This document shows positions 1,617-18,886 of a stretch of 64,000 bases of DNA, one piece after another. Within the stretch, counting starts at the first letter, position 1. The number at the start of each line of letters is the position of its first letter. Under the pieces are notes generated by a model. That model was not told the DNA's origin, did no database searches, and saw only the letters and a program-made list of their open reading frames with translations. The position numbers were made by a program, and so were the translations under genes. Source of the DNA: Candidatus Poribacteria bacterium (GTDB lineage Bacteria > Poribacteria > WGA-4E > UBA9662); assembly GCA_046582655.1 (NCBI GenBank), contig JAYGDX010000068.1, forward strand, positions 53,978 to 117,977, given 5' to 3'.

Positions 1617-2150
1617 CTAATACTCACGAACGCGAATATTACGGAATGAAACCGGACCATGATCGCCCTGTAGCATCAATGGGCCTTTGGCCGGGTTATC
1701 ATCACCCAGTTGCCCACCAGTTGGACCATTAATAGTAACATTATCATGAATTTTTTTGCCGTTTAGTGTTACTGTCAGTACCATTTCCTTGAGTGTAATA
1801 TCCATAATTTGCCATTCACCCGCCGGGTTTGTGGCTTCTACGTCAGGACGTTTCTGGTTGTAAAGAGCGCCGTTCTCTGCAGGATAATCATAGGTTTTCC
1901 CCAAACTATCTAAAACTTGTAATTCGTAACGACCACGCAGGTAGATACCACTGTTACTCCCTTCAGGAAACAGATACTCAATGTGTAGGTCGAAGTCACC
2001 AAATTCATCCTCAGTAATAATATCAACAGCATGCTTTGTATTTTCAAGAATACCATTATGAGCAACCCACGCATGCTCTTGATTGGTGTGACGCATTCGC
2101 CAACCACTTAAATCTTTACCATTAAAAATTTCGATCCATTTACTGTCCAT
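1617..2150 (-). CDS. DUF1080 (3-keto-disaccharide hydrolase family, ConA-like fold) protein, no signal peptide
   Basis: The likely ATG at 2150 gives MDSKWIEIFNGKDLSGW. NSGIYLRGRYELQVLDS and GPLMLQGDHGPVSFRNIRV match the DUF1080 pattern. TAG stop. Confidence 0.8.
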   Translation of the reverse strand: MDSKWIEIFNGKDLSGWRMRHTNQEHAWVAHNGILENTKHAVDIITEDEFGDFDLHIEYLFPEGSNSGIYLRGRYELQVLDSLGKTYDYPAENGALYNQKRPDVEATNPAGEWQIMDITLKEMVLTVTLNGKKIHDNVTINGPTGGQLGDDNPAKGPLMLQGDHGPVSFRNIRVREY

Positions 2151-2489
2151 AATTATCTCCCAATTCACAAATATTTGTAGCATTCTAAGACATTAAACAT
2201 ATTGTAATAGAATTGCTAGATAAAAAACAAGCGCGGATATCGTCAAAAATCAATTTACGATTTTCCAAAATTATACCTACAATAAAACACATGATACTGA
2301 CTGTTGCCGTAATTTTTTCATGTCCTTAACCAGATATCACTGATAATCACATCCAAGTTGCAGGAAATTAACCCGCGCCGGTTAGAGTTTCAAGGAGTAT
2401 GAATTGCATTGAAAGAGTATTTAGAGTCCTTTTCTCTAGAATTCAGCCAAATTTTTGGGCCGCGTTGACACGTCCAAATTGGAACACGA

Positions 2490-2950
2490 TTGTAACTTAA
2501 TTGGACTTGATCTTTTCCCACGAAGCATTGAACATTGAATCGGCTGTTACATCGACTTGAACCTGCCCCCGCAGTGTTCAGTTTGTTATGGGCAGAAGAT
2601 AAAAGTCATTCCCTTGTGATTGCAGCTGTAAGCCAAATGATAAGATGAGCAAGAATGATCATTTTCGTTCTACGCTGCAGAAAGACAACTAGCGTGGTTT
2701 TGAGCCAAAATGTGTTCTCTTTGACAGTTGGTATTCTGGTTTATGACAACCTGAAAGCAATTGGCAATATCGGATGGATGTGGCTGACCAGGTTGAAAAT
2801 GAATAGTCTGCTTAACCCAGATGGTTTGGTCTAATTCAAATCAATCAACTACCAATTGGAGTCCTTGGCCTGACAGCTCATCTTAGAGGTTATGGTTAGG
2901 TCAAAATGTTCAATATAGTATCCACCAAACGATGCATTGAACGGGAAAAA
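2490..2950 (+). mobile_element. Decayed DDE transposase remnant (IS4/IS701-like)
   Basis: No ORF of 60 aa or more is present. Translated pieces read KNDHF, RGFEPKCVLFDSWYSG, DNLKAIGNIGWMWLTRLKMNSLLNPDGLV and LTAHLRGYG*VKMFNIVS. They are spread over at least 2 frames with several stops, and the DSWY...GW.WLTRLK.N pattern is typical of this transposase class. Confidence 0.5.
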
Positions 2951-3091
2951 GTCCGTTCCGACTAGGGACAACGGAATCATATTGGTTTGAAGTAAATAGG
3001 GGTTGTCCGCACCGCTGTCTGTGTATGCTTATTTAAATCTTTTTACCAATTATTTCCTGCTGCGCAACTTATATTGATTTAGGAATCACAA

Positions 3092-3949
3092 CTACCCGTT
3101 AATCCAGCGGTGGTACTCATTTAAGATAATCTCTCGTGAACAACTTGGTCGATACACCATCCGAGCATTAAAACCGTATTTAGTATTGACCTGATAATCA
3201 GGAATAATGAACTGGAAATCCCAAGCCGGGTTAGTAGTTTGATACTGGCTATTTGTTCCTCCACCAGATGGTGAATGGGTAATTCGGATACCTTCGTTAC
3301 GATCAAACATCACAATCCAGATATGCTCATCGAACAGCCCATAAAACAAGGGAAGTTGGTAGAGCATAGGCGAGAAGTTACGAAATAGCGCATCACCATA
3401 ATCGTGGTTGAAGGTCAGTTGCATGTCATCACCAACATGGCAGACTGTGCTTTCGTCGTTGTGCCGTTGGGTACAGAGTTGCGCCCAGTGTGAGTTGTCG
3501 TTCTGAAAATAGATGCTTTTATCAAGCGGTGCATTAATATAACTAGCCCAGAACAACCCAATATAACCACCTTCAAACACATGCTGGTGCGCCAAAAAAC
3601 GGAAATTGATATCTATGTAATACGGTTCAACGAATTTGAAGAGGGTCCAACTTTCAAGGAAAAACGTAGGTGTAGGTGGCTGATACAGTTCGGCTTCACT
3701 ATCCGATAGACGGCGAAACGTCATCGGCGCGTGACGCGGTTCAAAGAAGATTTCGGGTGAACCGTTGGTATGGCCGTCGAAAATATGTTCCAGATTCCAA
3801 CCAGCGTAGGTTGGAACAAACAGGTTTCGTTGACTGGATTCGTGTGTCAGGTGCCAGATTCCATTGTAGCCAACACGGTGGTCGGCGTCTGCCGCATTAT
3901 CTCCGACTATAGCGGTCAATTCACCAACTTTGAATGTGGCGGACTCCAT
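3092..3949 (-). CDS. Hypothetical protein, no domain recognised
   Basis: 285-aa ORF whose ATG is preceded by AAGGAGAA. Globular-looking composition (GYNGIWHLTHE..., AGWNLEHIFDG). Divergent from the PhyH gene. TAG stop. Confidence 0.6.
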   Translation of the reverse strand: MESATFKVGELTAIVGDNAADADHRVGYNGIWHLTHESSQRNLFVPTYAGWNLEHIFDGHTNGSPEIFFEPRHAPMTFRRLSDSEAELYQPPTPTFFLESWTLFKFVEPYYIDINFRFLAHQHVFEGGYIGLFWASYINAPLDKSIYFQNDNSHWAQLCTQRHNDESTVCHVGDDMQLTFNHDYGDALFRNFSPMLYQLPLFYGLFDEHIWIVMFDRNEGIRITHSPSGGGTNSQYQTTNPAWDFQFIIPDYQVNTKYGFNARMVYRPSCSREIILNEYHRWING

Positions 3950-4120
3950 GTCTTGTTTTCTCCTTTGCCTGATTCTCCGACTCCTCCGATTATAGCATCA
4001 ACATGAAAAATTGGGGATAAATTTTCTCGTTGATTTATGCGATACAAAATGTATAATGTCGGTAGCCAAAATACGTTTTCCAGATTCAAGAACATTTGTA
4101 CTGAACAAAGGAAACATCGC

Positions 4121-4960
4121 ATGAGCACATTCCATCTGACAGATCAGCAAGTAAGTTTTTTTCATACATTTGGTTATCTCAGTTTCCCCGGGTTAATGAC
4201 AGATTGTATTGAGGAGATTGAATCAGCCTTTGAAGCCCTATGGGCAGAAAACGGTGGTGGACACAATGGTCAGCCACATGATGGTAAAGCCAGATCCTGT
4301 ATAGCACAGTTTATTGGCCAAAGCGAGCGATTAAGCGCGTTGCTGGATGATCCACGTATTCTTGTTATCGCCAAAACACTACTTGGCGATAACTTCAATT
4401 ACATGGGTAGCGACGGCAATTACTACGTTGGTGATACCGGTTGGCATTCCGACGGATGGCGCAAGGAGATATTGCACATCAAGATCGCCTTCTACCTTGA
4501 TCCGCTGACTCGCGATACAGGTTGTCTCCGCGTAGTCCCAGGGAGTCACCTCCTCGGCGATAGCTATGCCGATTCGCTCTCCCAAAAAACTCGTAAGAGT
4601 CAGGAGTTGTGGGGAATCAGTGGGCAACAGGTGCCAGCCACTGATTTTGAAACGCAGCCAGGCGACGTGGTTTGCTTCAATCACAATATCAAGCATGCTA
4701 CTTTTGGTGGTGGTACCCGTCGACGTATGTTTACCATGAACTGTTGTCAGCGTTACCCGGAAGACCGTCTGGAAGATTTTCGCAACTACATTAGTGGTGG
4801 CGCCCGGTTCTGGGTCGAGCGAGGATATGGTGAGGTGATGATTCGCACAGCTGGACCAAAACGGATGCGGCATCTGGAACAGAAACTGGCTAACGACGGA
4901 CATCTGGCCGAACTCTCCCGCCAAGCTCGTAACGCTATGTCAGAACCTTCGCGAGGATAA
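4121..4960 (+). CDS. Phytanoyl-CoA dioxygenase (PhyH) family Fe(II)/2-oxoglutarate oxygenase
   Basis: ATG 4121 (MSTFHLTDQQVSFFHTFGYL) is a typical PhyH N-terminus. HxD in GWHSDGW and a distal His in NHNIKHATFGG. The ORF-track start at 4037 is probably an upstream extension. Confidence 0.8.
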   Translation: MSTFHLTDQQVSFFHTFGYLSFPGLMTDCIEEIESAFEALWAENGGGHNGQPHDGKARSCIAQFIGQSERLSALLDDPRILVIAKTLLGDNFNYMGSDGNYYVGDTGWHSDGWRKEILHIKIAFYLDPLTRDTGCLRVVPGSHLLGDSYADSLSQKTRKSQELWGISGQQVPATDFETQPGDVVCFNHNIKHATFGGGTRRRMFTMNCCQRYPEDRLEDFRNYISGGARFWVERGYGEVMIRTAGPKRMRHLEQKLANDGHLAELSRQARNAMSEPSRG

Positions 4961-5021
4961 TCTTCAGATATATCACAAGTCATAATAAATTTTCAACTTT
5001 AGTAAAAGAAAGAAAGGAAGT

Positions 5022-6090
5022 ATGAAGCCTAAATTTCGGGTTGGCATCGTCGGCGCCGTATCCAGTTACAGCCTGCATTATGGCCAGACGCTTTGGGACA
5101 TGCCGGGCATTGAGTTGGCCAGTTTGGCCTATCTGGGGCGAGACCCAAAATATATTAAACATTCGCTCAACCTGCCGTGGCTGGCTAAGTATCCGAAAAC
5201 GCTCGAAAGTTACGCTGAAACATTCAAAACGCAGATCTACGAAACAGTAGATCATAATGGTTGCAAGTAGCAAACCGGACGCGGTTTGTATTTGTGCCGA
5301 AGACTATCTGCATCAGCACTACGCCTTACAAGCAGTCGCTAGCGGGATGCATGTGTTCCTGCCTAAACCGTTTGCTCGTTCCAGTGAAGAAGCCGAGACC
5401 ATGTTCAAGGCGGCAAATACGAATAATCTAGTGATGGTTGGAAGTTTACCTCATCGTTTCCAAGCTGCATCTGCTACTGCTCGTCAAGCAATCGACGATG
5501 ATAAAATTGGATGTCCGGTTTCTGGTCACTTTTCCATCGCGCACCATCTCTCGCTAGGAGGTTGGAAGAGTGATCCTAGCATGGCCGCAGGGCCAGAACT
5601 GGAGGTTGGTTTCTACGCTTTTGATCTAATGCGGATGCTGATGAAAAGCGAACCGCAAACGATAATGGGTATTGGTGTCAATCTCGACCATCATGGAATT
5701 CCTTACATCGATAACGGTAAATGTATTATCAAATGCCAAAACGGCGCCTTGGCGTCAATTGATCTCATTTTTTCCATACACCAACCTTTTTCCGCTGCTC
5801 GAAAAATGCATGTAGTTGGTGATGAAGGGGCTTTAACGATAGAACCTGATCCGAACACTGATGGGGAGTGCGTCGCCATCTACAGACCAGATAGAATTGA
5901 GCGGCAGAAAATTCCCAAATGGGATCCCCACGCCAAGGAGTTAGGTGCCTGGATAGATCTCTGTCGGAACGGAGGAGATTCCACCAAATGGCAACAGGAA
6001 GGGTTGCGGACACTTGCGATGATTTCCGCTTACAAGCAAGCCTACCAAAACAACGAGATGTTAACCTTGGATCAGGAGGGAAAAAGTTAA
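5022..6090 (+). pseudogene. Gfo/Idh/MocA family oxidoreductase split by an apparent 1-nt frameshift
   Basis: ORF 5022-5270 carries the Rossmann start (MKPKFRVGIVGAVS). ORF 5257-6090 continues with SKPDAVCICAED...GMHVFLPKPFARS...RF in the +1 frame. Removing one A in GATCATAATGG (5250-5260) would fuse the two. Confidence 0.7.
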
Positions 6091-6845
6091 TGGATTGGTA
6101 CGGACATACTTTTGCATTCAAGGTTCGGGTGGATGTCGAGCATGTCGAAGCTCAAAGATATATCGGTGACTTTCGCATGACAAAGGTATCAGTGATCAAC
6201 CTTCTGGATTTGCTGGATGAAATTAGTGTCAAGTTATCGTTTTGCGTACTGGGCATTACGGCTGAGTTTTATCCCAATCTCATCGCCGAAGTTATCGAGG
6301 CTGGACATGAGGTCTACGGACACAGTATGTATCACGAACCTGCCTTAGCCGAACGGCCATTAACTGAACAACACCATGAAATGCGACGTATGCGGGAGGC
6401 TATTAAAAATGCTGGTGGGATTGACGTGCGCGGTGTTGGAATTCCTCATCACGGCATGGCAGACGAGAACACATTGCGTGCGATCGTAGAGGTGGGGATC
6501 GAGTACGTGGAATCAAGGTTTCAAGCTAAAAATTCAGTCCTCCCCAAATGGCGTTCCATCGATGGCACAAATCTCAAAGTGATTGTGCCGGGCGACCAGA
6601 GTCGTGGTGCTTCAGATTACACCGACCGGCGTCCGTATTGGGCTCAGGTACACGAGGAAACATTCAGTCCAACCAATGCCAAAACCAAGTGGATGGCAAA
6701 TATCGATTGGGCCAAAGAAAATGGAAGAATGGCACAGTTAGTCATCCATCCGTGGATGCTGATGGTCAACCCAGGCGAAGTCAAAGTAATAAAAGATCTG
6801 CTAATCTACGCCCGTGATCAAGGAGCTTGGATGGCAACCGTTTGA
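6090..6845 (+). CDS. Polysaccharide deacetylase (NodB/CE4-like) family protein
   Basis: The ATG overlaps the upstream stop (TAATG at 6088-6092) and follows GGAGGG. GHEVYGHSMYH carries the HSxxH motif, and the VRVDVEH acidic motif is present. No signal peptide. Confidence 0.7.
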   Translation: MDWYGHTFAFKVRVDVEHVEAQRYIGDFRMTKVSVINLLDLLDEISVKLSFCVLGITAEFYPNLIAEVIEAGHEVYGHSMYHEPALAERPLTEQHHEMRRMREAIKNAGGIDVRGVGIPHHGMADENTLRAIVEVGIEYVESRFQAKNSVLPKWRSIDGTNLKVIVPGDQSRGASDYTDRRPYWAQVHEETFSPTNAKTKWMANIDWAKENGRMAQLVIHPWMLMVNPGEVKVIKDLLIYARDQGAWMATV

Positions 6846-6893
6846 AGGGTTAATTAATTTGACACAAGACTAACACCCTAAAAGGAGAAGCAT

Positions 6894-7673
6894 ATGAAAC
6901 CAGGTTTTATGTCTTCGGTTTGCCCGAAGCAAACACTTTCTGAATTGATTGAAACGGCCAAAAAATACGGTTACCAGGGAATAGAGTTTCGGGTGGAATG
7001 GGACCATCAACACGGTATAGAGCTAAATGCTACCGACGAGGAACTTCAGCAGGCCAAGCAGCTGTTAACGGATAACGGTATCGTCGCCTCCTGTATTGCG
7101 ACTGGTGTTCAGTTTAACTCAGGTAATCGTTCTGACCACCTTTCGCAGCGCGACTCACTTCAAAAGTATATTGGACTGGCAGCCAAGATGGATGTTCCGT
7201 ACCTGAGAACTTTTAGTGATCCGGTTCCTGAAGAAGATGAAGTTGCCCGGAACGAAGTGTTGAATCTAGCTGCGGAATCTTATGCTTCCGTCGATGATTG
7301 GGCTAAACAACACGGCGTTCAGGTTTTGGTGGAAACACATACCAACATGCGGGCCCACTGGGCTAAGCAGATCTTAGATACAGCCAGTGCAGATAGTTTA
7401 AATATTCTGTGGGATGCTGGCCATCATTTGGGTCGGGGGCAATCGGTGGAGGAAGCGTATCCGTACTTATGCGGACAGGTATCGCACCTACACTTTAGAT
7501 CTAATCCCAGTAGTGAGACACTGACCGACGTTGACAATCAGCAGATCTTCAGCCTTTTAGCTGCTGATAGGTTTACAGGGTTCTTCTCGCTGGAGGTGAT
7601 AAATCCTGAAGATTCCGAGGCCGTTTTGAACCATCATATAGCCAAGTTCACCGAATTCATGAAGGGAATCTAA
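6894..7673 (+). CDS. Sugar phosphate isomerase/epimerase (xylose isomerase-like TIM barrel) family protein
   Basis: AAGGAGAA RBS. GYQGIEFR, LRTF, VLVETH and WDAGHH are typical of the AP-endonuclease-2/xylose-isomerase-like TIM-barrel family. Confidence 0.8.
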   Translation: MKPGFMSSVCPKQTLSELIETAKKYGYQGIEFRVEWDHQHGIELNATDEELQQAKQLLTDNGIVASCIATGVQFNSGNRSDHLSQRDSLQKYIGLAAKMDVPYLRTFSDPVPEEDEVARNEVLNLAAESYASVDDWAKQHGVQVLVETHTNMRAHWAKQILDTASADSLNILWDAGHHLGRGQSVEEAYPYLCGQVSHLHFRSNPSSETLTDVDNQQIFSLLAADRFTGFFSLEVINPEDSEAVLNHHIAKFTEFMKGI

Positions 7674-7721
7674 GTTGGCCAACCTGCAAGACCGCACGCA
7701 CAACAGCAAAAGAGCATTGCA

Positions 7722-9236
7722 ATGATGAACCAACAATCAAGCCCAAATTTTCTTGTTTTTATCGTTGATCAGATGAACAGTTTCAGCCTTGGATGCCATG
7801 GTAATTCAGATGTCCGCACACCCAATATAGACAAGTTATGCGCTGGAGGTACAAGTTTTGACCGCGCCTACTGTAGCAATCCGGTCTGTTCCCCCTCCAG
7901 AGCTACGCTCCATACCGGACTGACTCCCCGGCAACACGGTTTGGTCACCAACGGGTGTAAATTGACGGATCAGATGCCCACGTTGCCACAGGTGTTGGCG
8001 GACAATGGGTATCGTACCCATTGTGTTGGCAAGATCCATTTGCAACCATTCAGCACCTCTGACTTTGGCGAGGAAGGTCATCCCCTTTCGTGGGAGAGTC
8101 GCGACCTGTGGAATGAAGGTGTGATCGAAGGATTACCCCTACCATATTATGGCTATCAAACGGTGGACTATGTTGGTGGACATGTCAACTATGTCAACGG
8201 TGATTATATCAATGACGTGGAAGCACGGTCTCCAGGTACCAGAGCAAAACTGAGCCGGGCAGAGGCATACCATAGTGTACCGAAAAGTCAAGCTTGGCGA
8301 ATGCCAATTGATCCGGAATTGCACTATAATCATTGGATCGCAGACAGGTCGATGGACTTTCTCGATTCGGTGCCGGATGAGGATAATTTCTTTCTTGTCA
8401 CCTCTTTCCCAGATCCTCACCATCCCTTTGCTGCCTGTCGACCCTACAGCGAAATGTATGATCCCAACGAGGTCACCTTGCCGGAAACCTGGAACGAAGG
8501 TGAAGATCTCTGTGGTTACCTTCAACGGGATGCCAACACCGGGCACAGTTCGTGGGACGAAACCGCTTTACGAGAATCCATCGCCCAGACTTACGGTATG
8601 GTCACTCACATCGACGACAATGTCGGCCGTCTGCTCCAGTACCTTGATCAAACCGGACACGCCGACAACACTGTTGTAGTGTTTCTGTCTGATCACGGTG
8701 AGTATCTTGGTTCTCATCACCTGCTACTGAAAGGGAAGTGGCCCTACGAACAGGTGGTGCGTGTGCCGTATATCTGGAAAGATCCAAAAGCAAGAGCGAG
8801 AGGAAGATCTGATCAAATTGCCAGCCTGCTCGATTTTGTGCCGACGGTGCTTGATTATGTCAAAATTGATCAAATTCCTTTTAAGTTGCGTGCCGAGGGG
8901 AAAGGAACTACACCAACCCTGCCGGGGAGATCATTGCGAAGCTGGATTGAAGGAAATACAGAGTCGAGTGTCGGCGCCTTAGTCGAGTATGACGAAGACT
9001 TCTCTGCAGGACATATATGTCGCTACCGGATGTTTATTGAATCACGATTCAAGGTCTGTCTCTACGGAGGAACAGGGCAGGGGGTTTTGCTCGATCTGGA
9101 ACAGGATCCACATGAACGCCGTAACCTATGGACAGATAGCAGCTACACCAGCATCCGAAACGATATGCTGGCCAAACTGGCTGACCGATTGGCGTGGACG
9201 GATCGGCTTGATTCCCCTCGTTATTGTGGTGCTTAA
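7722..9236 (+). CDS. Cys-type sulfatase (arylsulfatase A family), no signal peptide
   Basis: NFLVFIVDQMN at the N-terminus, CSPSRATLHTG (CxPxR formylglycine motif), and FLSDHGEYLGSHHLLLKG. Confidence 0.9.
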   Translation: MMNQQSSPNFLVFIVDQMNSFSLGCHGNSDVRTPNIDKLCAGGTSFDRAYCSNPVCSPSRATLHTGLTPRQHGLVTNGCKLTDQMPTLPQVLADNGYRTHCVGKIHLQPFSTSDFGEEGHPLSWESRDLWNEGVIEGLPLPYYGYQTVDYVGGHVNYVNGDYINDVEARSPGTRAKLSRAEAYHSVPKSQAWRMPIDPELHYNHWIADRSMDFLDSVPDEDNFFLVTSFPDPHHPFAACRPYSEMYDPNEVTLPETWNEGEDLCGYLQRDANTGHSSWDETALRESIAQTYGMVTHIDDNVGRLLQYLDQTGHADNTVVVFLSDHGEYLGSHHLLLKGKWPYEQVVRVPYIWKDPKARARGRSDQIASLLDFVPTVLDYVKIDQIPFKLRAEGKGTTPTLPGRSLRSWIEGNTESSVGALVEYDEDFSAGHICRYRMFIESRFKVCLYGGTGQGVLLDLEQDPHERRNLWTDSSYTSIRNDMLAKLADRLAWTDRLDSPRYCGA

Positions 9237-9353
9237 TCGACAGCAGAACAAATAAATTTCCGCGCCCCTGGAGATTTTTCAGTAATTGCGTGCCCTCAAG
9301 ATGGCACGTATGCAATCTTTTTCAAAGACGACCTGAATCAAGGAATACTTGCT

Positions 9354-10823
9354 ATGAACAACCGTCCAAACATTCTAATTATTCAGTCTGACCAGCACCG
9401 AATCGACTGTATCGGAGCATATGGGAACTCAGAGATCCAAACACCACACCTCGATGCGCTGTCAGCGGACGGCATCAGGTATCAGCAGTCGTTCTGCCCA
9501 TATCCGGTGTGCACACCATCGAGATATTCATTTCTGTCCGGGCTTTATGTCCATCAGCACATGGGGCGGAGCAATCGCTCAACCTTGTCCCCCGTTATCC
9601 CGACCTTTCCGCGTGTTCTGTGTGATGCAGGTTATCAAACTAAAGCTGTCGGCAAGATGCACTTCACACCGACCTATCTGGACGTTGGATTTGAAGAGAT
9701 GTTGCTGGCTGAGCAGGCTGGGTCAGGGCGGTACGATGACGACTATCACCGATGGTTGAAGGAAGAAGGTCAGTTCGACCAGATTGATCTGATAGATCAG
9801 GTACAGGAGTATCGACAACAGACGTCAGCAGAATACTGGGATACTGTCGGCGCCATAGAATCGAACCTGGAGGAAAAGTACCACTCTACCACCTGGATTG
9901 GAGATTGTGCTGTCGAAAGCCTCTCCGATTGGAACCATGATCGTTCGCACTTGCTGATGGTGAGTTTTATCAAACCGCACCATCCGTTCGATCCACCAAC
10001 ACCGTGGAGTCGGATGTACGACCTAAACCGACTGTCACTACTGCCCGGATACACCGATTCACCCCTACAGCATGATCTGGATTTTCACGCTGGATTTTTC
10101 CCTTACGCTGAAATGACAGAGGAAAAGATTCGTGGTGCCATGGCTTATTATTATGCGACTATTTCTCAGATCGACCATCACCTTGGACGCTTAATAGACT
10201 GTCTCAAGCAAAAGGACTTATACGATAATACACTTATCCTTTATAACAGCGATCACGGTGAATATATGGGTTATCATCACCTGTTGCTGAAAGGTAATTA
10301 CATGTATGATCCACTGATCAAGGTGCCATTGATTATCAAGTATCCAGATCAAACCCAGGCAGGTACTGTTTCTGACGCCTTGGTCAACACCATCGACGCG
10401 GCACCGACGCTATTGAAACAAACTAGCTGCCAAGTCCCCGAAACTATGATGGGGCTGGATTTAATGGATTCAGCAGATCAGCGGGAATTCGTTTTCGCCG
10501 AAGCTGGTCGTGGCAGCGGATACATGGCTCGGTCAAAGACACGGAAACTTCTACTTCATCACCAGGAGAACCAATCCCAATTTTTTGATCTGGAGATGGA
10601 TCCGTACGAATTGAACAACCTCTTCTTCGATCCACATTGGCAGGACGAGGTTGCTGCCTTTCGGGAGGCATTGTTCAAATGGGCAATGTTTGATCATCCA
10701 ACTCATGCCTACCTAGACCCAACTTCTGCCATAATTCCGGCTAGGAACGCAGTTCACCATGATGATGGACATCGAGATGAGATCTACGCTTACTTTAAAA
10801 ACAAAATGAAAGGTAACGCGTAG
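9354..10823 (+). CDS. Cys-type sulfatase (arylsulfatase A family), no signal peptide
   Basis: PNILIIQSDQHR, CTPSRYSFLSGLY and NSDHGEYMGYHHLLLKG. A paralog of the preceding gene. Confidence 0.9.
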   Translation: MNNRPNILIIQSDQHRIDCIGAYGNSEIQTPHLDALSADGIRYQQSFCPYPVCTPSRYSFLSGLYVHQHMGRSNRSTLSPVIPTFPRVLCDAGYQTKAVGKMHFTPTYLDVGFEEMLLAEQAGSGRYDDDYHRWLKEEGQFDQIDLIDQVQEYRQQTSAEYWDTVGAIESNLEEKYHSTTWIGDCAVESLSDWNHDRSHLLMVSFIKPHHPFDPPTPWSRMYDLNRLSLLPGYTDSPLQHDLDFHAGFFPYAEMTEEKIRGAMAYYYATISQIDHHLGRLIDCLKQKDLYDNTLILYNSDHGEYMGYHHLLLKGNYMYDPLIKVPLIIKYPDQTQAGTVSDALVNTIDAAPTLLKQTSCQVPETMMGLDLMDSADQREFVFAEAGRGSGYMARSKTRKLLLHHQENQSQFFDLEMDPYELNNLFFDPHWQDEVAAFREALFKWAMFDHPTHAYLDPTSAIIPARNAVHHDDGHRDEIYAYFKNKMKGNA

Positions 10824-10840
10824 TCGGGAGATTCTCAAAT

Positions 10841-13378
10841 TTGCAAGATCAAAAGACACGCTTAATCCATCTGTTACCGGTCGAACGTCAAACCAAGACC
10901 GAAACTCAGGATTTGATACGCGGTTTTACAGACGCGGAATTGGCAGAGGCACAAGTAATCGTGCCAGAGAGAGAAGAACCAGGCCTGACTGCACCCATAC
11001 CGAGAAAGGTTCATGTATCTGGTCGTGCTTGGGTTGCCGATCAGGGAAGAGCAAATGGCTTAAGCGATGTACGCGTCACTGATGGAGAGTACATCTATCT
11101 GACAGAAGAAGATGGCACCTTTTCCTTTATCTTTGACATGGATGATGATCCACACTGCCGTTTTGTTGTGGTCGTCTGTCCAAGCGGTTACCGATTAACA
11201 ACGCCCTTTTTCCTACGCATCCCGCACGATGAAGAAACGGTAGAATACCAAGTCGACTTTGTTTTTCATACCGATATCCAAGATAGTCAATTTTCGTTTC
11301 TGGTAGCCAGTGATAGCCAGTTCACCCGGCCAGAAGCCATGATCAGCATAGCGAAAGATTTCGCCCAGATGACAGAAGAAGCCAAAGACCTTGCGTTTCT
11401 AATGACGGTTGGTGACCTGACCATGAGTGGCACACACTACCAGTGGGATATGTACGATCAAATTCAAGGTGCTTCTCAACTGCCGATTTATAACAGTTTT
11501 GGGGGGCATGATGGCAACTGTCTCACACCCCGTAGTACGCTCAACTACGAACTGCGGATTGGCCCGCCCTACTATTCGTGGGATTATGGTGGGGTTCATT
11601 TCGTTCAATTTGTGACCGAACATCGGTATCTCGGTGAGAGAGGTCAGACACGGCAAGATAAGTGGTTGGAAGCGGATTTAAAAATGGTCGTACCGGAAAC
11701 ACCCGTTATTGTTGCCACACATTACCCACTAAAGGCTGATTGGTTCGATCAACGAAAAGCTGAGGGCTTTAAGGTGATTTGTCAATTGGCTGCCCACTGG
11801 CATTGCGTCCAGGTCGGCAGTCGAGGGTCAGTCCCAGTCTTAATTACTGCTCCAGCCCGAGGATCGGATTGGGGATCGTATTCTAACGCTTACCGATGGG
11901 TGCACATTACCTCAAACGGTGTTCGAAGCGACCTCCGAGTTGCTGGACAATACCAACGACTGGAGGTCATTTCTCCGGCTGTTGCAACCACCCTCGGCCA
12001 ACAACCGATTCGTCTGTTGGCTTATGATTCGGCCAAGAAGGTAAAAACGGTGAGGTGTCGTCTGGCAGATCCAAATGGTGTTATCCAATCGACAGATCTA
12101 AAGCTTGACGGCGATTGGACATGGAAGGAACAGTTTAATCCACAAATTCCTGGTCAGTGGACGTTTGAACTAGATGCCACCGACCAACTCAACCAGTGTT
12201 GGCAACAGAAACATTTAGTTGAAGTCATTGATACGTGTTTAGCTGATCCTGTGATTGGTGGCGACTTTCCTTGGATCTTAGCTGGAGACCCTCCCCGCGT
12301 ATTAGCAGAAGGACCGGAACCTCCACTTTATCCACTTTGGATACAGCACACTGGTTCTGTTCATGTCCTACATGCTTCACCTGTCGTCGCTCACGGCCAT
12401 GTGTATGTGGCTGTAACCAACCCAAACGCGGGTGAGATCTTTCATGGAATCTGCTGCTTTGAGGCCAAAACGGGGCAGGAAATTTGGAGGAGTCCATCGC
12501 CACGAGGAGATATCCGCGGGGCAGTGACGGTTCATGAGGATTGCGTTTATACAGTGACAGGCCAAGGATGGGCTGCTGCCTATATGGCCAAAACAGGAGA
12601 ATTGTTGTGGGCACAACCACTAAAGCCGGCTTATGCCGACGGTCGTCCGCTAGCCATTAACCAAACACCACCGATTCCGACAAAATTCGGCCTATTGGTA
12701 AGCGATTGGCAGTCACCACAGTTCCTGCTTAATTACCAGACTGGTGAGGAAATCAGGCAATTCGACATTGATATTGGTTATTATGCAGCCTTCGCCACCA
12801 TTTTCGACGACATCCTTTACATCGCGCGCCGTTACGGGTGTTCGGCTATTCGGTTGCCTTTAGGAGAAGTGGTGTGGGAAGGTGAGGAATCTGCCCGATC
12901 AACCTCGGCCGGAATTGTTGTTGATGGAAAATTTATATATCGCACGGCATCGAGCGTGAAGGCACTGGATACCGAAACTGGAGAAGAAATCTGGGACACA
13001 CCTGTGGCCAATGCCGGGTTCCAGAACCCAATTCCGGTTGTATGGGATGATCTGGTGTTGGTCAATGGTACGCACTTTACTGCCATTGACTTGGTCACGA
13101 GCGAGATCCGATGGGAGGTTGCCTGTGCGCAAGACGCATCCAGATTTGAACGCTCCCAGCGTCAAACTATGGCCGGAAGTTCTACACCAATCGTTGCTGG
13201 AAATTATGCCTATTTTGGCCATGACGACACCTCAATTCGAACCGTCAATAACCAAGGCCATCTGGTCTGGGTGTATCGGCTTGGTACGCCAATCAAGACT
13301 GCACCTGTGGTTTGCGGAAATTTACTTTTTGCTCACGATTACTCAGGAAACCTGTGGTGTTTCGCGCCAACCGTCTGA
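10841..13378 (+). CDS. Metallophosphoesterase fused to a PQQ-like beta-propeller repeat domain
   Basis: TTG start 10 nt after GGGAG. An N-terminal beta-sandwich-like segment is followed by calcineurin-type motifs (ASDSQF, VGDLTMSG, GGHDGN, VATHYPL). The C-terminal half has repeated ...G.(V/L)Y....G...A.(D/A)..TGE..W units typical of PQQ/BamB-like propellers. Confidence 0.7.
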   Translation: MQDQKTRLIHLLPVERQTKTETQDLIRGFTDAELAEAQVIVPEREEPGLTAPIPRKVHVSGRAWVADQGRANGLSDVRVTDGEYIYLTEEDGTFSFIFDMDDDPHCRFVVVVCPSGYRLTTPFFLRIPHDEETVEYQVDFVFHTDIQDSQFSFLVASDSQFTRPEAMISIAKDFAQMTEEAKDLAFLMTVGDLTMSGTHYQWDMYDQIQGASQLPIYNSFGGHDGNCLTPRSTLNYELRIGPPYYSWDYGGVHFVQFVTEHRYLGERGQTRQDKWLEADLKMVVPETPVIVATHYPLKADWFDQRKAEGFKVICQLAAHWHCVQVGSRGSVPVLITAPARGSDWGSYSNAYRWVHITSNGVRSDLRVAGQYQRLEVISPAVATTLGQQPIRLLAYDSAKKVKTVRCRLADPNGVIQSTDLKLDGDWTWKEQFNPQIPGQWTFELDATDQLNQCWQQKHLVEVIDTCLADPVIGGDFPWILAGDPPRVLAEGPEPPLYPLWIQHTGSVHVLHASPVVAHGHVYVAVTNPNAGEIFHGICCFEAKTGQEIWRSPSPRGDIRGAVTVHEDCVYTVTGQGWAAAYMAKTGELLWAQPLKPAYADGRPLAINQTPPIPTKFGLLVSDWQSPQFLLNYQTGEEIRQFDIDIGYYAAFATIFDDILYIARRYGCSAIRLPLGEVVWEGEESARSTSAGIVVDGKFIYRTASSVKALDTETGEEIWDTPVANAGFQNPIPVVWDDLVLVNGTHFTAIDLVTSEIRWEVACAQDASRFERSQRQTMAGSSTPIVAGNYAYFGHDDTSIRTVNNQGHLVWVYRLGTPIKTAPVVCGNLLFAHDYSGNLWCFAPTV

Positions 13379-13433
13379 ATTTTGAATTGCCCTTCATCGT
13401 CTGACCTTCTATAACCATATTCGAGGAGTGAAC

Positions 13434-14828
13434 ATGTTAAGATCCCAGTTTTATCCACTTATATTTGGAATTTCGGTGACAATAATCCTAATTGGTTGCC
13501 AGCAGAAATCGACCGATAAAAACAGGCAGAGTACAAAAGGCAATCAGGTCACCACCTTGATTGTGCGTTGCAAAGCAAAACCACCTACTGAAGACTGGCG
13601 CGGAAATAACCTAATTGCTGCGGCAGAAGTGGTGAACGCAGAATTACAAGCGGCAGAGGATAAACGCAGTGTTCGAATTCAACTGATTCAGGATGACAAA
13701 GACTGGGGTGCATACAAGACGGAGTTTGAGCTGGCATCGGATGCCAATCAAGCCTCAGATATTATCCTTTCCGGGCATGAACATATTGGGGATTGGGCCT
13801 CTGCCAACTTGATCCTGCCCATTACAGACAAAATACCAAACCATCCCGAATTTAGTGACGTTATTCCATCGTTATGGCAGGCGACAGAATGGAATAGCGA
13901 AAGATGGGGTATCCCGCAAGATGCCGAAGTGCGCCTCTTATACTATAGTAAACCGATCCTGCGGAAACTTGGCTGGAGCGATGAAAAAATTGAAAATCTG
14001 CCGACTCAAATTACCAAAGGTGAATTTACTTGGCTAGACATGCTTCAAGTGGCCAAGCAGGCAGTAAATCAAAAAATAGTAGTCCCTGGGAATGGTTGGT
14101 GGCATCGTTCTCAGAATGGGCCTGACTTCTTATATTATTATTTAGCCCACGGCGGCGAAATCATCAACCAAGATGGAATTCTTGTCTTTGACCGACAGGC
14201 TGTTTTGAAAGTCTATCAACTATTGTATTCTGCCGCCCACGAAATACGGGTGCTCTCACCCAACCTGATCGGTATGGATGCCAACGAATGGAATACCACT
14301 ATCAGTACGGCTAATAGAGTGCTCTTTTGGTTCGCTGGTTCGTGGAACTGGGCTGATTGGGCCACTAACTATCTCCAGGATTTTGGAGTTGAAGCGTTTT
14401 TATTCAAAAATGTTGGGTTCGCACCAATTCCGGCAGGATCGACCGGAAAGCCGATTACGCTGACACATCCGCTGGTATATATGATCAGTACCCAGTCGAC
14501 GCATCCAGACTTGGCCTTACGAGTAATTGCTAAAGCCACAACCAGAGAGTCTAATACCAATCACGCTGTCAGCAGTGCCCATTTGGGAATTTTGAAATCT
14601 CAGAAGAATTTTCCGCCTTATGTCAAGGCCAGATTTCTTAGCGAAGTAATGTATCTCCTCAATTTCACCACTTTTCTACCAAATAGTACACACTGGGGCA
14701 GTTGGTCGGACGCGTTTTTCCTGGGAATTCAAGCGGTAGAGTCTGGGGATCTAAAACCAGCACAGGCTTTAGAGGTCATTGAAGGTCAAATCAAAAACGA
14801 TCTCGGAAATCAGATCATTATTCGTTGA
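13434..14828 (+). CDS. ABC transporter extracellular solute-binding lipoprotein (family 1, sugar type)
   Basis: ATG 13434 lies 5 nt after GAGGAG (GTG 13428 is an alternative start). Signal peptide with lipobox LIGC. Size and W-rich pattern fit sugar-type SBPs, and the gene sits directly upstream of the permeases. Confidence 0.8.
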   Translation: MLRSQFYPLIFGISVTIILIGCQQKSTDKNRQSTKGNQVTTLIVRCKAKPPTEDWRGNNLIAAAEVVNAELQAAEDKRSVRIQLIQDDKDWGAYKTEFELASDANQASDIILSGHEHIGDWASANLILPITDKIPNHPEFSDVIPSLWQATEWNSERWGIPQDAEVRLLYYSKPILRKLGWSDEKIENLPTQITKGEFTWLDMLQVAKQAVNQKIVVPGNGWWHRSQNGPDFLYYYLAHGGEIINQDGILVFDRQAVLKVYQLLYSAAHEIRVLSPNLIGMDANEWNTTISTANRVLFWFAGSWNWADWATNYLQDFGVEAFLFKNVGFAPIPAGSTGKPITLTHPLVYMISTQSTHPDLALRVIAKATTRESNTNHAVSSAHLGILKSQKNFPPYVKARFLSEVMYLLNFTTFLPNSTHWGSWSDAFFLGIQAVESGDLKPAQALEVIEGQIKNDLGNQIIIR

Positions 14829-15063
14829 AGTTAATGATTATATTATAATCATACGCACAAATACTATAGTTATTTAGATCGGAATTTTTTTGTCGCGTTT
14901 TGCCTGAGTTCGTATTGAGGCCTCTAATATATTGAGAAAGATGGGCTTCCAAAGGACGAAAAGCAGTCAAAAGATACGAGAAGAAGCGACAGCTCTTTTC
15001 CTTTCTCTCTATTTCTTCTGGTATAGGTAAATTGATAAAAACCAATCTAGTTTTAGCAAATTT

Positions 15064-16014
15064 ATGACGATTGACAATCCCAATACCATGCCCCACCGGA
15101 GGAAAATATGGCGGTCACTGAGTGTGTGGATCTTTATGGGGCCGGCGGCATTCTTGGTGACTGTGTTTTTCTTCATTCCCGTAGTGATCCTGATTTGGAT
15201 CAGTTTAACCAATCTATCTAGTCAGAACTTCGGTAATCCCGAGTTTATTGGTTTAGCAAATTATGTCAGGTTGTTCAAAGATCGATTCTTCTTGAAGATT
15301 TTGGGAAATACCTTTTTCTACATGGTGATAACGTTAAGCTTTTTTAACATTGGGCTGGCCCTGCTCTTGGCACTACTAACTACCCACATCAACCGTCAGG
15401 CGGGTTTTTTCTTTCGCGCTATTTGGCTGCTACCACGGATCACGCCTTCGGTAATCTACATTATGATGTGGAAACGATTAGCTGCCAGTGAGCCGTACGG
15501 TATTATCAATCAACTTCTAAGCCCGTTCGGGGTCGAAGCTCAAAACTGGCTCTGGACCAGACCGTGGCTATTCGTTATCTTGGTGAACGGCTATATTGGA
15601 GCCTCGTTCGGTATGATTATCTTTACCTCTGCTATTGAATCGGTTCCTAAAGACCTGATCATGGCGGCCAGAGTCGATGGAGCGTCAACATTGCAGATCA
15701 TTGGCGATATTACGCTTCCGCAAATGAAGTGGCCGCTATTGTTCGTGACAACTTATCAGACCCTTTCCTTATTAACCTCTTTTGAATTTATCTTACTACT
15801 AACTAATGGCGGTCCCGGCTTGTATAAAACGGAGGTCTGGGCGTTGGCAGCTTACCATCGAGCTTTAAGAACCTACTTCGGCAACAACCAGTGGGGCTAT
15901 GGCGCGGCTTGGGGATTCATTCTGGTGATCATCGGCATTATCCTGTCGGTTGTCTATTTACGTGTTTTTCGATTTAATCGACTCGTTCGAGAACCCAGAA
16001 TCGATGTGGTCTAA
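15064..16014 (+). CDS. ABC sugar transporter permease (MalF/UgpA-like)
   Basis: Six predicted TM segments. The EAA-type loop AARVDGASTLQIIGDITLPQM is present. Confidence 0.85.
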   Translation: MTIDNPNTMPHRRKIWRSLSVWIFMGPAAFLVTVFFFIPVVILIWISLTNLSSQNFGNPEFIGLANYVRLFKDRFFLKILGNTFFYMVITLSFFNIGLALLLALLTTHINRQAGFFFRAIWLLPRITPSVIYIMMWKRLAASEPYGIINQLLSPFGVEAQNWLWTRPWLFVILVNGYIGASFGMIIFTSAIESVPKDLIMAARVDGASTLQIIGDITLPQMKWPLLFVTTYQTLSLLTSFEFILLLTNGGPGLYKTEVWALAAYHRALRTYFGNNQWGYGAAWGFILVIIGIILSVVYLRVFRFNRLVREPRIDVV

Positions 16015-16016
16015 AA

Positions 16017-16922
16017 GTGATGTTTGAAAAAACGTGGAACAAAACAGGTCGAGTGTATGGCCCTAAACGCATTTTTGGCAATATGATAGTCTATTTGCTT
16101 CTTGTTATCATTACCATACCAATTCTAGTTGGTTATGCTTGGTTGGTCATCGCCACATTCTCGCACCGAACTGAGGGATTGCTACCCAAAAATGTTGCTG
16201 GCAATATCGGAGGCTGGACGTTGCAGAACTGGGGTTTTGTAACAAATCCCCACATTTGGCAAATGACATTGAATTCTTTTATCATCGCTATCAGCATGGT
16301 GATTGGGGTTGGATCGATTTCATCACTGGCAGGTTATGCGTTGTCCCGAATGAATTTCATCGGTCGGAGAGGGTTCCTGTCGATGACTATCGTCCTGCAC
16401 GCTTTTCCTAGTGTCACTTTGCTAATCTCAATTTTCTTTGTCCTAAGATTTATCACCAATATTCCGGGAATTGGTTCGGTCTTAGGTTACAATACTGCTG
16501 GTGGTATTGCGCTGGTGATGATTAGTTTGGATCTCCCTCTGGGAATCTGGCTAATGAAAGGGTTTTTCGACAACGTCTCATGGGATACAGAGCAATCGGC
16601 TTTGATTGATGGGGCTTCACGACTCCGCATTTGGTGGGAAATTATTCTGCCACAGATCAAGCCAGGGTTGGCCGCGCTGGCTATTTTCACCTTTCTAACG
16701 GGATGGTCGGCCTACCTTGTACCAGCGACTTTCACGATTGGTACTCAGATGGCGAATTTACCGGTTTATTTAAATCAACTACAAGGAGACACAGCGTTGA
16801 CCAACTGGAACATAGTGGCAGCGGTAGGTCTGTTTCAATTGGTACCAGTCCTCATGTTCTTCATCTTCTCCCAGAAATTACTACTGAATATCTACTCCGG
16901 CGGTGTCAAAGGCGGAGTTTAA
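16017..16922 (+). CDS. ABC sugar transporter permease (MalG/UgpE-like)
   Basis: Starts 2 nt after the upstream stop. EAA loop SALIDGASRLRIWWEIILPQIKP. Polytopic. Confidence 0.85.
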   Translation: MMFEKTWNKTGRVYGPKRIFGNMIVYLLLVIITIPILVGYAWLVIATFSHRTEGLLPKNVAGNIGGWTLQNWGFVTNPHIWQMTLNSFIIAISMVIGVGSISSLAGYALSRMNFIGRRGFLSMTIVLHAFPSVTLLISIFFVLRFITNIPGIGSVLGYNTAGGIALVMISLDLPLGIWLMKGFFDNVSWDTEQSALIDGASRLRIWWEIILPQIKPGLAALAIFTFLTGWSAYLVPATFTIGTQMANLPVYLNQLQGDTALTNWNIVAAVGLFQLVPVLMFFIFSQKLLLNIYSGGVKGGV

Positions 16923-16939
16923 ACGCTGTAAAAAAAGCG

Positions 16940-18010
16940 ATGAAGGTCCAACTCGAAAATTTGACTAAGCGATGGGACGATGTCATCGGTGTAGACGCAA
17001 TCAACCTTGAAATAAAAGATGGTGAATTCGTTGCCCTTCTGGGACCATCAGGTTGTGGTAAAACAACGACCCTTCTGATGGTTGCTGGGATCTATCAACC
17101 TACTTGGGGAACTATTCGTTTCGACGATCGAGTGGTAAACTATCTGCCACCTAAGGATCGTAATATAGGGATGGTATTCCAGAGTTACGCGCTTTATCCA
17201 CATATGACGGTAGCACAGAACATTGGTTATTCGCTTAAGCTGAAGAAGGCACCAAAAATTGAGATCAACCAAAGTGTCCAGCAGGTAGCGGATAAGATGG
17301 GAATTGGGGATCTGCTTCACCGGAGGCCATTTCAATTGTCAGGTGGACAGCAACAGCGAGTAGCTCTGGGGCGTGCCTTGGTCAAGGAACCCGCGCTTTT
17401 ACTGTTTGATGAGCCTCTGTCTAATCTGGATGCTCGCCTGCGCCTCTCGATGCGTCGGGAGATTAAGCGGTTGCAGGTTGAACTGGGGATTACGGCACTC
17501 TACGTCAGCCATGATCAAGTGGAAGCCATGACGATGGCGGACCGAATTGCGGTGATGAAAGATGGTAGGATTCAGGACTATGCCACGCCCGACAAGCTTT
17601 ATAATCAGCCAAAAACAATCTACACTGCGGGCTTTATTGGTAACCCTCCAATGAATTTTTGGCAGGTGGAGATTAGTCAGGCAGACGGACAATTTCAGGC
17701 TCAAGGTGGAGGTGTTTACTTGACCTTACCGCCTGAAAAGGGGACAGAGGCGATTGGTGCTAACCCTGTCACTGTCGGTATACGACCTGAAGACATTATA
17801 GTATCGGATCAAGGTGTATCAGGCGAGGTTGTTTCTGTTGAGCCTCTTGGTCGTGATGACTTGATTGGTGTTCATATTGGAGACATTGAGGTTCATGCAC
17901 TTGCAAACCCCAAGCACAATTTCAGTGAAGGAGGTCACGTTAAACTGAATTTTAACACTCAAAAAGTCCAGCTTTTTCATTCGGATACCGGGCGATCACT
18001 TCTCTGGTGA
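16940..18010 (+). CDS. ABC transporter ATP-binding protein (MalK/UgpC-like)
   Basis: ATG 16940 (MKVQLENLTKRW). Walker A GPSGCGKTT, signature LSGGQQQRVALGRAL, Walker B LLLFDEPLSNLD, and a C-terminal TOBE-like domain. The ORF-track start at 16631 overlaps the permease and is rejected. Confidence 0.9.
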   Translation: MKVQLENLTKRWDDVIGVDAINLEIKDGEFVALLGPSGCGKTTTLLMVAGIYQPTWGTIRFDDRVVNYLPPKDRNIGMVFQSYALYPHMTVAQNIGYSLKLKKAPKIEINQSVQQVADKMGIGDLLHRRPFQLSGGQQQRVALGRALVKEPALLLFDEPLSNLDARLRLSMRREIKRLQVELGITALYVSHDQVEAMTMADRIAVMKDGRIQDYATPDKLYNQPKTIYTAGFIGNPPMNFWQVEISQADGQFQAQGGGVYLTLPPEKGTEAIGANPVTVGIRPEDIIVSDQGVSGEVVSVEPLGRDDLIGVHIGDIEVHALANPKHNFSEGGHVKLNFNTQKVQLFHSDTGRSLLW

Positions 18011-18021
18011 GAATTGGCCTA

Positions 18022-18720
18022 CTAAAAAACTTCAACTTCTAAATCGTCAAACCATGATGTTCCTCTCCCATCCTGACGGAGGTAGATATAACTCGCACTG
18101 ATCTCTGGTGATGGCAGTCTATGAATTTCAATGCTGACGCGGGGCTGTTATTGGTTCCCACTAATTTCTGTGAACAGATGTAAGGGTAATGTTGCGGATA
18201 ATTATAAATACCCTGCGAAGCGCTAGAGGCGCACCGCGACCATCCAGCTCCTCAGTTTTATGTAAGCACTGACACGGAACCTTGTCAGTTATGTCCATTT
18301 CTGAGTCTGACACCGTCACTCTCTTGATTCATAACCCACTCATTGGGATCATCAATGTCCTTGAAGATTTTCAGTGAGAAGTCGTCAGATTTCCAAAATC
18401 TTGGCACCAAATTGTGCCATCGCCCTGTGGCAACTACGGCTAAGGATCGGTATTACCTGAGGTTGGTTAGTTCAACCGAAGTCCCTTTTCAAGACTGTTA
18501 AAAGCTCGTAAAGAGGCAGTTTCTCAAAATCGTTTTAGCTGACAGAGTCGAATCCGAAACGAGCAGAGGGAATTATACAATTCTCAGCGTGGTAGTATCC
18601 AGTAAAGTGAGTGTCGTAGCCCCAGTTGTACACACTAATCAGGGGATAGGAAGCGGTCTCACCAACAAATTCAAAAGTCGGGTTGTCACCCTATTCGTAA
18701 ACCAGAACAAAAATGAATCA
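18022..18720 (-). pseudogene. Decayed gene remnant of unknown function
   Basis: No long ORF is present. Minus-strand fragments read like protein: GDNPTFEFVGETASYPLISVYNWGYDTHFTGYYHAEN, WHNLVPRFWKSDDFSLKIFKDIDDPNEWV, and ...YIYLRQDGRGTSWFDDLEVEVF followed by a stop. They are broken by frame changes and stops, including an in-frame TAG. Confidence 0.35.
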
Positions 18721-18886
18721 CACTTCTGGTAGGATTGAAGTGCGTTCGGCTCTGGGAAGGATGGATATAGTACGAGTGCTATTAAGGGAAAGTTATGAGT
18801 ACAGGATTCTCTTAACTTATGATATAGTGAATCAGATTCTTAGAGACTCGATTAACTGCTGTTGATGATAATTCCGGAGATGGTTG

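Follow-up and report, generated by a model that had tools for sequence, protein, structure and literature searches.

A sulfatase locus beside an ABC importer in an uncultivated Poribacteria bacterium: a possible finishing island for small sulfated sugars with a frameshifted oxidoreductase gene

Introduction

Sulfated glycans are a large, slowly degraded pool of marine carbon, and their consumption by uncultivated marine bacteria is poorly known. Here, we analyzed a stretch of 64,000 nucleotides from a Candidatus Poribacteria bacterium (assembly GCA_046582655.1, contig JAYGDX010000068.1, positions 53,978 to 117,977; hereafter, the window). Its locus at 1617-18010 holds two sulfatase genes, a sugar-type ATP-binding cassette (ABC) importer, and the genes of a Gfo/Idh/MocA oxidoreductase (Gfo), a CE4/NodB-fold enzyme (CE4), and a xylose-isomerase-like TIM barrel (TIM), with a DUF1080 gene nearby. 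The initial annotation of this DNA had seen no glycosidase and had proposed that a sulfated, possibly N-acetylated oligosaccharide is imported, desulfated, deacetylated, and then cleaved oxidatively in the cytoplasm. The locus raises the question of whether its genes encode such a glycosidase-free route.

On the basis of sequence comparisons, our tentative preference goes to a different reading: the enzyme genes may form an accessory, G+C-rich island in which small sugars that carry sulfate and possibly acetyl groups are finished in the cytoplasm, placed beside an inherited ABC importer in an uncultivated marine bacterium.

Gene content and predicted role of the locus

Families were called with Pfam on the proteins of the window, and their placement was also evaluated with NCBIfam and with profiles against solved structures. 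Every family in the gene list of the initial annotation was recovered by Pfam in its place (Table 1). The genes at 4037-18010 are co-directional and separated by short gaps, a Shine-Dalgarno-like site precedes nearly every start, and the Gfo stop and the CE4 start overlap by one base (TAATG). A promoter-like site lies at 4030-4057, upstream of PhyH; in the promoter and terminator scan, the counts were no higher than in shuffled controls. All genes other than Gfo are intact, with catalytic motifs.

N-terminal hydrophobicity was scored as the best 12-residue Kyte-Doolittle mean. All enzymes stayed at or below 1.5, whereas the binding protein, the permeases, and a nearby LamG protein gave 2.9-3.7; by this measure, none of the enzymes has a hydrophobic leader. 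The other descriptive claims made for this locus were also borne out: both sulfatases are of the Cys-type (CSPSR starting at residue 56 in sulfatase 1, CTPSR at residue 53 in sulfatase 2), the sugar importer is complete, with all CUT1 components found by Pfam, and no glycoside hydrolase or lyase was matched by Pfam in the locus and the next 25 kb (1-45 kb of the window).

Under the reading that we prefer, small sulfated sugars would be set free outside the cell by other enzymes, and the lipoprotein binding protein with the permeases would take them up. The two formylglycine sulfatases would then remove sulfate, and the CE4-fold enzyme an acyl or amide group. Finally, the module formed by Gfo, CE4, and TIM would carry out a redox or isomerization step on the freed monosaccharide, with the oxidoreductase step now probably impaired. 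All these roles are predicted from family membership. The part of the earlier proposal that concerns import, cytoplasmic desulfation, and deacetylation thus stands as an inference, in line with the co-directional array, the leaderless sulfatases with their motifs, the CE4 enzyme, the CUT1 importer, and the sulfatase-rich loci that hold the module elsewhere; the part that concerns 3-keto cleavage does not.

The best solved relatives of sulfatase 1 are 4upi and an S1_30 sulfatase (~3e-44), and that of sulfatase 2 is 7oz8 (5e-55, residues 3-438). The latter belongs to a set of Bacteroides sulfatase structures and is probably BT1918, a 3-O-sulfo-GlcNAc sulfatase of subfamily S1_46. The S1 sulfatases of gut Bacteroides (7oz8; BT4656, S1_11) have the Sulfatase fold and the CxPSR motif in common with those of the window, and sulfatase 2 aligns with 7oz8 over 436 residues. 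Conversely, the window sulfatases are leaderless and carry Cys rather than Ser, an ABC importer takes the place of the SusCD of the gut Bacteroides loci, and Tyr94 of BT1918, which recognizes the N-acetyl group, aligns with an Asn.

In CE4, the canonical TFDD motif 1 is replaced by an invariant RVDVEH, which we take to resemble the DVED variant of PEP-CTERM and PgdA-like members. The motifs RVDVEH, GHxMxH (here GHSMYH), PHHG, and LVIHPWML are kept in 10 orthologues. The best NCBIfam match of this protein is TIGR03006, with 52 bits against a cut-off of 276, and its best solved relative is 3rxz (2.8e-7).

The Gfo gene is split by a frameshift

Residues 1-78 of Gfo are read at 5022-5255, and the remainder is read in the +1 frame from 5257. 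The N-terminal piece (5022-5270) is family-like over residues 1-78, and its frame then ends at a TAG; the C-terminal piece (5257-6090) comprises 277 amino acids, aligns from column 79 to the end, and keeps the motifs. Both pieces are 69-71% identical to intact orthologues and bear no further lesions. About 50 orthologues (47-71% identity) are encoded in a single frame of 346-365 amino acids.

The frameshift is real and not an assembly artefact. It was found near 5256 in all three DNA assemblies, which come from different studies (a hydrothermal-vent metagenome from 2014 and two marine metagenomes from 2025, one of which may be the source of the window), share >99.9% identity, and have no indel there. 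Furthermore, an RNA-library contig of 398 bases (5122-5519) is identical to the DNA across the frameshift, and the cluster of the 277-residue product has 48 near-identical database members. The split is probably a recent, fixed, inactivating mutation. Because this fixed +1 frameshift interrupts Gfo, the oxidoreductase step in this lineage is probably lost or impaired.

Two other explanations of the split were considered. Programmed +1 frameshifting was rejected: no slippery or stop-adjacent motif is present at 5251-5268, the RNA contig matches the DNA, and the ~50 orthologues are single-frame. A gene split by design is unlikely, since the ATG at 5257 lacks the Shine-Dalgarno-like site that nearly all other starts have; a functional two-piece Gfo is a minority alternative.

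Gfo orthologues on two unrelated metagenome contigs (L096:8038-8400 and L074:6860-7180) are also interrupted by in-frame stops, in both cases among their first ~80 residues, and on L096, the middle of CE4 is also garbled. These stops reflect either parallel decay or assembly error.

Origin of the enzyme block and of the importer

The enzyme block (4037-13378, ~9.3 kb) has a G+C content of 0.485, which corresponds to the 97.8th percentile of 10-kb windows, while the genome mean is 0.435. Of the phylum's 176 genomes, 5 have CE4; it is missing from both genomes of the same genus. No sulfatase orthologue was found in the phylum at E <= 1e-100 with this query, in a search that scored just 8 candidates per genome out of 21-146. 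The named close homologues of TIM and Gfo are from metagenome-assembled genomes of Chloroflexi, Latescibacterota, and Planctomycetota. The enzyme block is probably accessory and recently acquired.

The importer is lineage-inherited, with a history separate from that of the enzyme block. One same-order genome has the binding protein and both permeases at 62-78% identity, and a remnant of the binding protein, 77% identical over ~145 residues and with a TAG stop, lies in a same-family genome (L125, G003:C310, 9892-10327).

The genome is rich in the families of the locus, with at least 150 Gfo, ~91 TIM, ~29 DUF1080, ~86 sulfatase, and 105 FGE-domain matches. Since these families are so numerous, the proximity of Gfo, TIM, and DUF1080 is weak evidence: we estimated, given at least 150 Gfo genes, that chance alone would put a Gfo gene less than 5 kb away from about one in five DUF1080 genes.

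A Gfo-CE4(-TIM) module in other genomes

Gene contexts elsewhere were taken from metagenome loci found with the TIM profile and from genomes of the window's phylum. In six metagenome loci (L074, L075, L081, L088, L096, and L098), Gfo is directly followed by CE4, with TIM beside or near them, and the Gfo-CE4 pair also occurs in two genomes of the same phylum, which are class-level relatives (L117 and L118). The distribution is patchy, on contigs labelled Chloroflexi, Latescibacterota, and Planctomycetota. Gfo-CE4, with or without TIM, is thus a conserved, translationally coupled module in several phyla. It is also the new element of this locus: no characterized counterpart was found in the searches run, and the oxidative type of pathway is already described.

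The module is surrounded by sulfatases, PhyH/TauD dioxygenases, acetyl-esterase-like hydrolases, a second CE4, MR_MLE, SDR, DHDPS, and sugar-acid enzymes. GH4, a GH89-like NAGLU protein, and an alginate-lyase-fold protein occur around it as well, so that the lack of a glycosidase is local to the window rather than typical of the module. The Chloroflexi-like contigs L096, L098, and L088 are a close likeness: they carry orthologous Gfo (54-65%), CE4 (49-72%), and TIM (56-60%), along with sulfatases and PhyH. They differ from the window in that these sulfatases and PhyH are not orthologous to its own, and in that they also carry GH4, GH89 or the alginate-lyase fold, MR_MLE, SDR, DHDPS, and a second TIM barrel. 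DUF1080 is absent from all loci holding the Gfo-CE4-TIM module.

A broader proposal, which we regard as doubtful, is that the module represents an undescribed cytoplasmic catabolic route for decorated (sulfated or acylated, probably amino) sugars, passed on by gene transfer between uncultivated marine phyla (those labelled Chloroflexi, Latescibacterota, Planctomycetota, and Poribacteria) and maybe using a keto-assisted elimination unlike those of the AL/BT, Lgd, and Dgp systems discussed below. The conserved module, which in several phyla stands next to genes for sulfatases, 2-oxoglutarate dioxygenases, and esterases, is a positive lead, and its intact orthologues are available for biochemistry.

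Two further contexts were observed. On L118 (G051:C62, 4562-15235; 67% G+C), Gfo-CE4 lies with TauD, a second Gfo, a double acetyl-esterase-like hydrolase, PhyH, a second CE4, and CN-hydrolase. In same-order genomes, the closest TIM homologues (~42% identity) follow sbcD-sbcC, with none of the other genes of the locus; in another family of that order, the TIM homologue always stands after sbcD-sbcC (L009:4844-10478 and L011:5216-10867).

Alternative readings of the locus

The main rival of the preferred reading is that the locus is a mosaic in decay, in which genes became neighbors by insertion or rearrangement in a family-rich genome, serve no single pathway, and are being lost as a block. 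We consider this unlikely, yet it accounts for several observations. The Gfo frameshift is fixed, and no ribosome-binding site precedes the C-terminal piece. Homologues of the fusion of a metallophosphoesterase with a propeller have a signal peptide that is missing here, and the DUF1080 protein is also leaderless, in a family that is normally exported. A dispersed repeat lies in the gap at 2184-3091. Among the compared loci, no synteny was found beyond Gfo-CE4-TIM and the transporter. The large counts of Gfo, TIM, sulfatase, and FGE-domain genes fit the same picture, and population differences in the window at 4461-13552 include 11 non-synonymous and 4 synonymous changes, which are small numbers. 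On the other hand, every gene but Gfo is intact, with catalytic motifs and Shine-Dalgarno-like sites, the two Gfo pieces have no lesions beyond the frameshift at their 69-71% identity to intact orthologues, spacing is tight, with the one-base overlap between Gfo and CE4, and parts of the locus are present in an RNA library.

Some of these points, together with others, also weigh against the locus being a finishing island for sulfated sugars. Cover by RNA-library contigs is partial and patchy and does not establish co-transcription or expression levels, and such libraries can contain DNA. The metallophosphoesterase-propeller gene showed no synteny with other genes of the locus in 58 other loci, and it has lost its leader here. 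The linkage of the enzyme block with the transporter was seen in no other genome, the sole orthologous transporter being on a 7.6-kb contig. Finally, both the 11:4 excess of non-synonymous changes and the loss of leaders would fit relaxed constraint.

The route proposed in the initial annotation, in which the desulfated and deacetylated oligosaccharide would undergo C3 oxidation by Gfo, elimination by TIM, and hydration by DUF1080 without a Koshland glycosidase, is possible but unsupported, and we judge it improbable. In its favor stands a characterized precedent: in the AL/BT pathway, Gfo, TIM barrel, and DUF1080 proteins cleave glycosides by oxidation, elimination, and hydration (Nasseri et al., bioRxiv 10.1101/2024.03.25.586180). 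The same three families are encoded by BT2156-BT2160 of Bacteroides thetaiotaomicron and AL1-AL5 of Alistipes and lie here within 6 kb. A plausible link to sugars that are poor substrates for ordinary glycosidases is a further likeness. However, the BT/AL proteins are mostly periplasmic and carry export signals that the window proteins lack. Furthermore, their DUF1080 gene is in the operon, whereas that of the window is on the other strand, ~2.8 kb from Gfo and behind a repeat, is not kept with the module, and is within the range of chance proximity. The conserved partner of the window module is instead CE4, and its oxidoreductase is broken in every sample.

The sequences point the same way. 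Against the model of the BT_2158 glycoside 3-dehydrogenase (NCBIfam NF058561), Gfo reached 19.9 bits, with a cut-off of 750. The profile of its family was nearest to 1,5-anhydrofructose reductase (6e-26), ahead of LgdA (3e-15), DgpA (1e-14), and the P2B11 3-dehydrogenase (1e-10). The closest solved relatives, the 1,5-anhydro-D-fructose reductases (PDB 2glx and 4koa), differ from it in turn: the similarity begins only after about residue 55-75, the N-terminus of the Gfo family has a ~20-residue insert, and the window copy is split. As for TIM, the single sequence had no match among solved structures. Its family profile was nearest to AsbF, a 3-dehydroshikimate dehydratase (7e-6), Art22, and 4ovx (~1e-5), reached YcjR only at 0.028, and left the characterized 3-keto-glycoside lyase or hydratase structures of the Protein Data Bank (AtHYD, DgpB-C) unmatched at E <= 1. 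The structural model (AlphaFold2, pLDDT 95.1) is less selective, and this is a point for the oxidative route: in Foldseek, scores were about equal throughout the superfamily, with epimerases, AtHYD, DgpB-C, IolI, AsbF, and YcjR among the matches. The conserved E147, H177/H178, H198/H200, and E234 are compatible with a metal site.

The LgdA/LgdB (levoglucosan), DgpA/DgpBC (C-glycoside), and Escherichia coli YcjS/YcjR systems resemble the module in that a leaderless NAD-type oxidoreductase likewise adjoins a metal-dependent TIM barrel. They have neither CE4 nor sulfatases, and 1,5-anhydrofructose reductase and inositol dehydrogenases match the profile with better E-values than they do. On sequence, then, Gfo, TIM, and DUF1080 appear to have no specific affinity to the characterized 3-keto-glycoside enzymes. 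The absence of a Pfam glycoside hydrolase or lyase from the locus would suit cleavage by oxidation, but homologous modules adjoin GH4, GH89, and a lyase fold; GH4, for its part, shows that redox-elimination chemistry is used in such settings.

The value of these comparisons is mostly corrective: in genomes with hundreds of Gfo and TIM paralogues, genes of these families near DUF1080 are not evidence for oxidative glycoside cleavage. Three GH4 genes are present in this genome, and two of them lie near Gfo or sulfatase genes, at C188:9938-20600 and C237:7382-11463. Tighter TIM-DUF1080 groups occur at C378:4290-6616 and C103:17073-18461. Redox-type glycoside cleavage is more plausible at these four sites than in the window.

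A last reading, which we judge very improbable, gives Gfo-CE4-TIM a substrate other than a glycoside, for example a keto-acid or a cyclitol bearing sulfate or acyl groups, with chemistry like that of inositol or dehydroshikimate enzymes. In its favor, AsbF is the nearest solved relative of the TIM profile, inositol dehydrogenases are among the high-ranking solved structures for the Gfo profile, and the best NCBIfam matches are iolG for Gfo and IolO for TIM. However, the two NCBIfam matches reach only 66.9 of 355 and 31 of 300 bits, and the genes next to the module in related loci encode carbohydrate-active proteins, namely sulfatases, GH4, GH89, esterases, and sugar-acid dehydratases. IolE had no match among the window proteins in the NCBIfam search, and with iolG so far under its cut-off, the pair did not group with IolG/IolE, the outcome that the initial annotation had named as contrary to its own model.

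Features of the locus and neighboring genes

Table 1. Features of the locus, with positions in the window
Feature	Position	Strand	Length (amino acids)	Basis and remarks
DUF1080 (3keto-disac_hyd)	1617-2183	-	188	Pfam, 156.9 bits
Dispersed non-coding repeat, between DUF1080 and 285-residue protein genes	2591-2983			tblastx
Uncharacterized protein	3092-3949	-	285	Mutarotase-like supersandwich fold (AlphaFold2)
PhyH-family Fe(II)/2-oxoglutarate dioxygenase	4037-4960	+		Pfam, 49.2 bits
Gfo/Idh/MocA oxidoreductase	5022-6090	+		Pfam; two frames (5022-5270; 5257-6090)
CE4/NodB-fold enzyme (Polysacc_deac_1)	6090-6845	+	251	Pfam, 47.6 bits (cut-off 23.1)
Xylose-isomerase-like TIM barrel (AP_endonuc_2)	6894-7673	+	259	Pfam, 85.4 bits
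S1 sulfatase 1	7722-9236	+		Pfam, 173.5 bits; CSPSR
S1 sulfatase 2	9354-10823	+		Pfam, 162.8 bits; CTPSR
Metallophosphoesterase (MetallophosN) and PQQ-like propeller fusion	10841-13378	+	845	Pfam
CUT1-type ABC importer	13428-18010	+		Pfam
Lipoprotein binding protein (SBP_bac_1)	13428-14828	+		Lipoprotein-type leader
Permease (BPD_transp_1)	15064-16014	+		
Permease (BPD_transp_1)	16017-16922	+		
MalK-type ATPase (ABC_tran + OB_MalK + TOBE_2)	16940-18010	+		

Within the array, the likely start of PhyH is at 4121, preceded by a AAAGGAAA site; this protein has 13 paralogues in the genome, the nearest with 65% identity. Between population samples, two distinct replacements were seen at one CE4 codon, at 6373. 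The metallophosphoesterase-propeller family is widespread (50-60% identity), mostly labelled Planctomycetes and also Verrucomicrobia and Armatimonadetes. In the window, its gene starts at a TTG just after the signal-peptide point, 17 nucleotides behind the sulfatase stop, and its motif I is D-x-Q, not D-x-H.

The genes of DUF1080 and of the 285-residue protein are on the strand opposite to the array and are split by a 900-bp stretch that contains the dispersed repeat (~400 bp). Contigs C192, C281, and C322 carry copies of this repeat, which tblastx matched in every frame. At this gap, three other assemblies differ from the window by an A inserted after 2457 and a one-base deletion at 2744; applying both indels restored no gene in 2184-3091. 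Pfam had no match on the stop-to-stop fragments of 2184-3091 and 18011-19208. The likely start of DUF1080 is the ATG at 2150, after a GGGAG site. Its best solved relative is 4qhz (3e-21), and 8tda, annotated as a "probable secreted glycosyl hydrolase", reached only 0.0067.

The 285-residue protein, which had been flagged as a possible hidden glycosidase or lyase, has no match in Pfam or NCBIfam and belongs to a family of 634 representatives that lacks a Pfam model. The structural search gave a confident model (AlphaFold2, pLDDT 96.7) with a galactose-mutarotase-like beta-supersandwich, and no recognizable glycosidase or lyase. Its matches (VIA-align Z 14-18) are accessory domains of GH38, GH129, and GH36, aldose 1-epimerases, PL26, GH174, and PL4; the fold occurs in non-catalytic domains as well as in PL4, PL26, and GH174 chains. 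A catalytic role is possible. Residues N18, N52, E54, R72, Y137, W243, D244, and R263 are conserved. Homologues of the protein occur as fusions with esterases, CN-hydrolase, a beta-helix domain, or RTX repeats, and in one case with DUF1080: in P0251 (514 amino acids), DUF1080 (residues 29-232) is joined to a supersandwich domain of this type (237-512). Because the two are fused in P0251 and are same-strand neighbors in the window, there is a hint that the DUF1080 and 285-residue proteins could cooperate.

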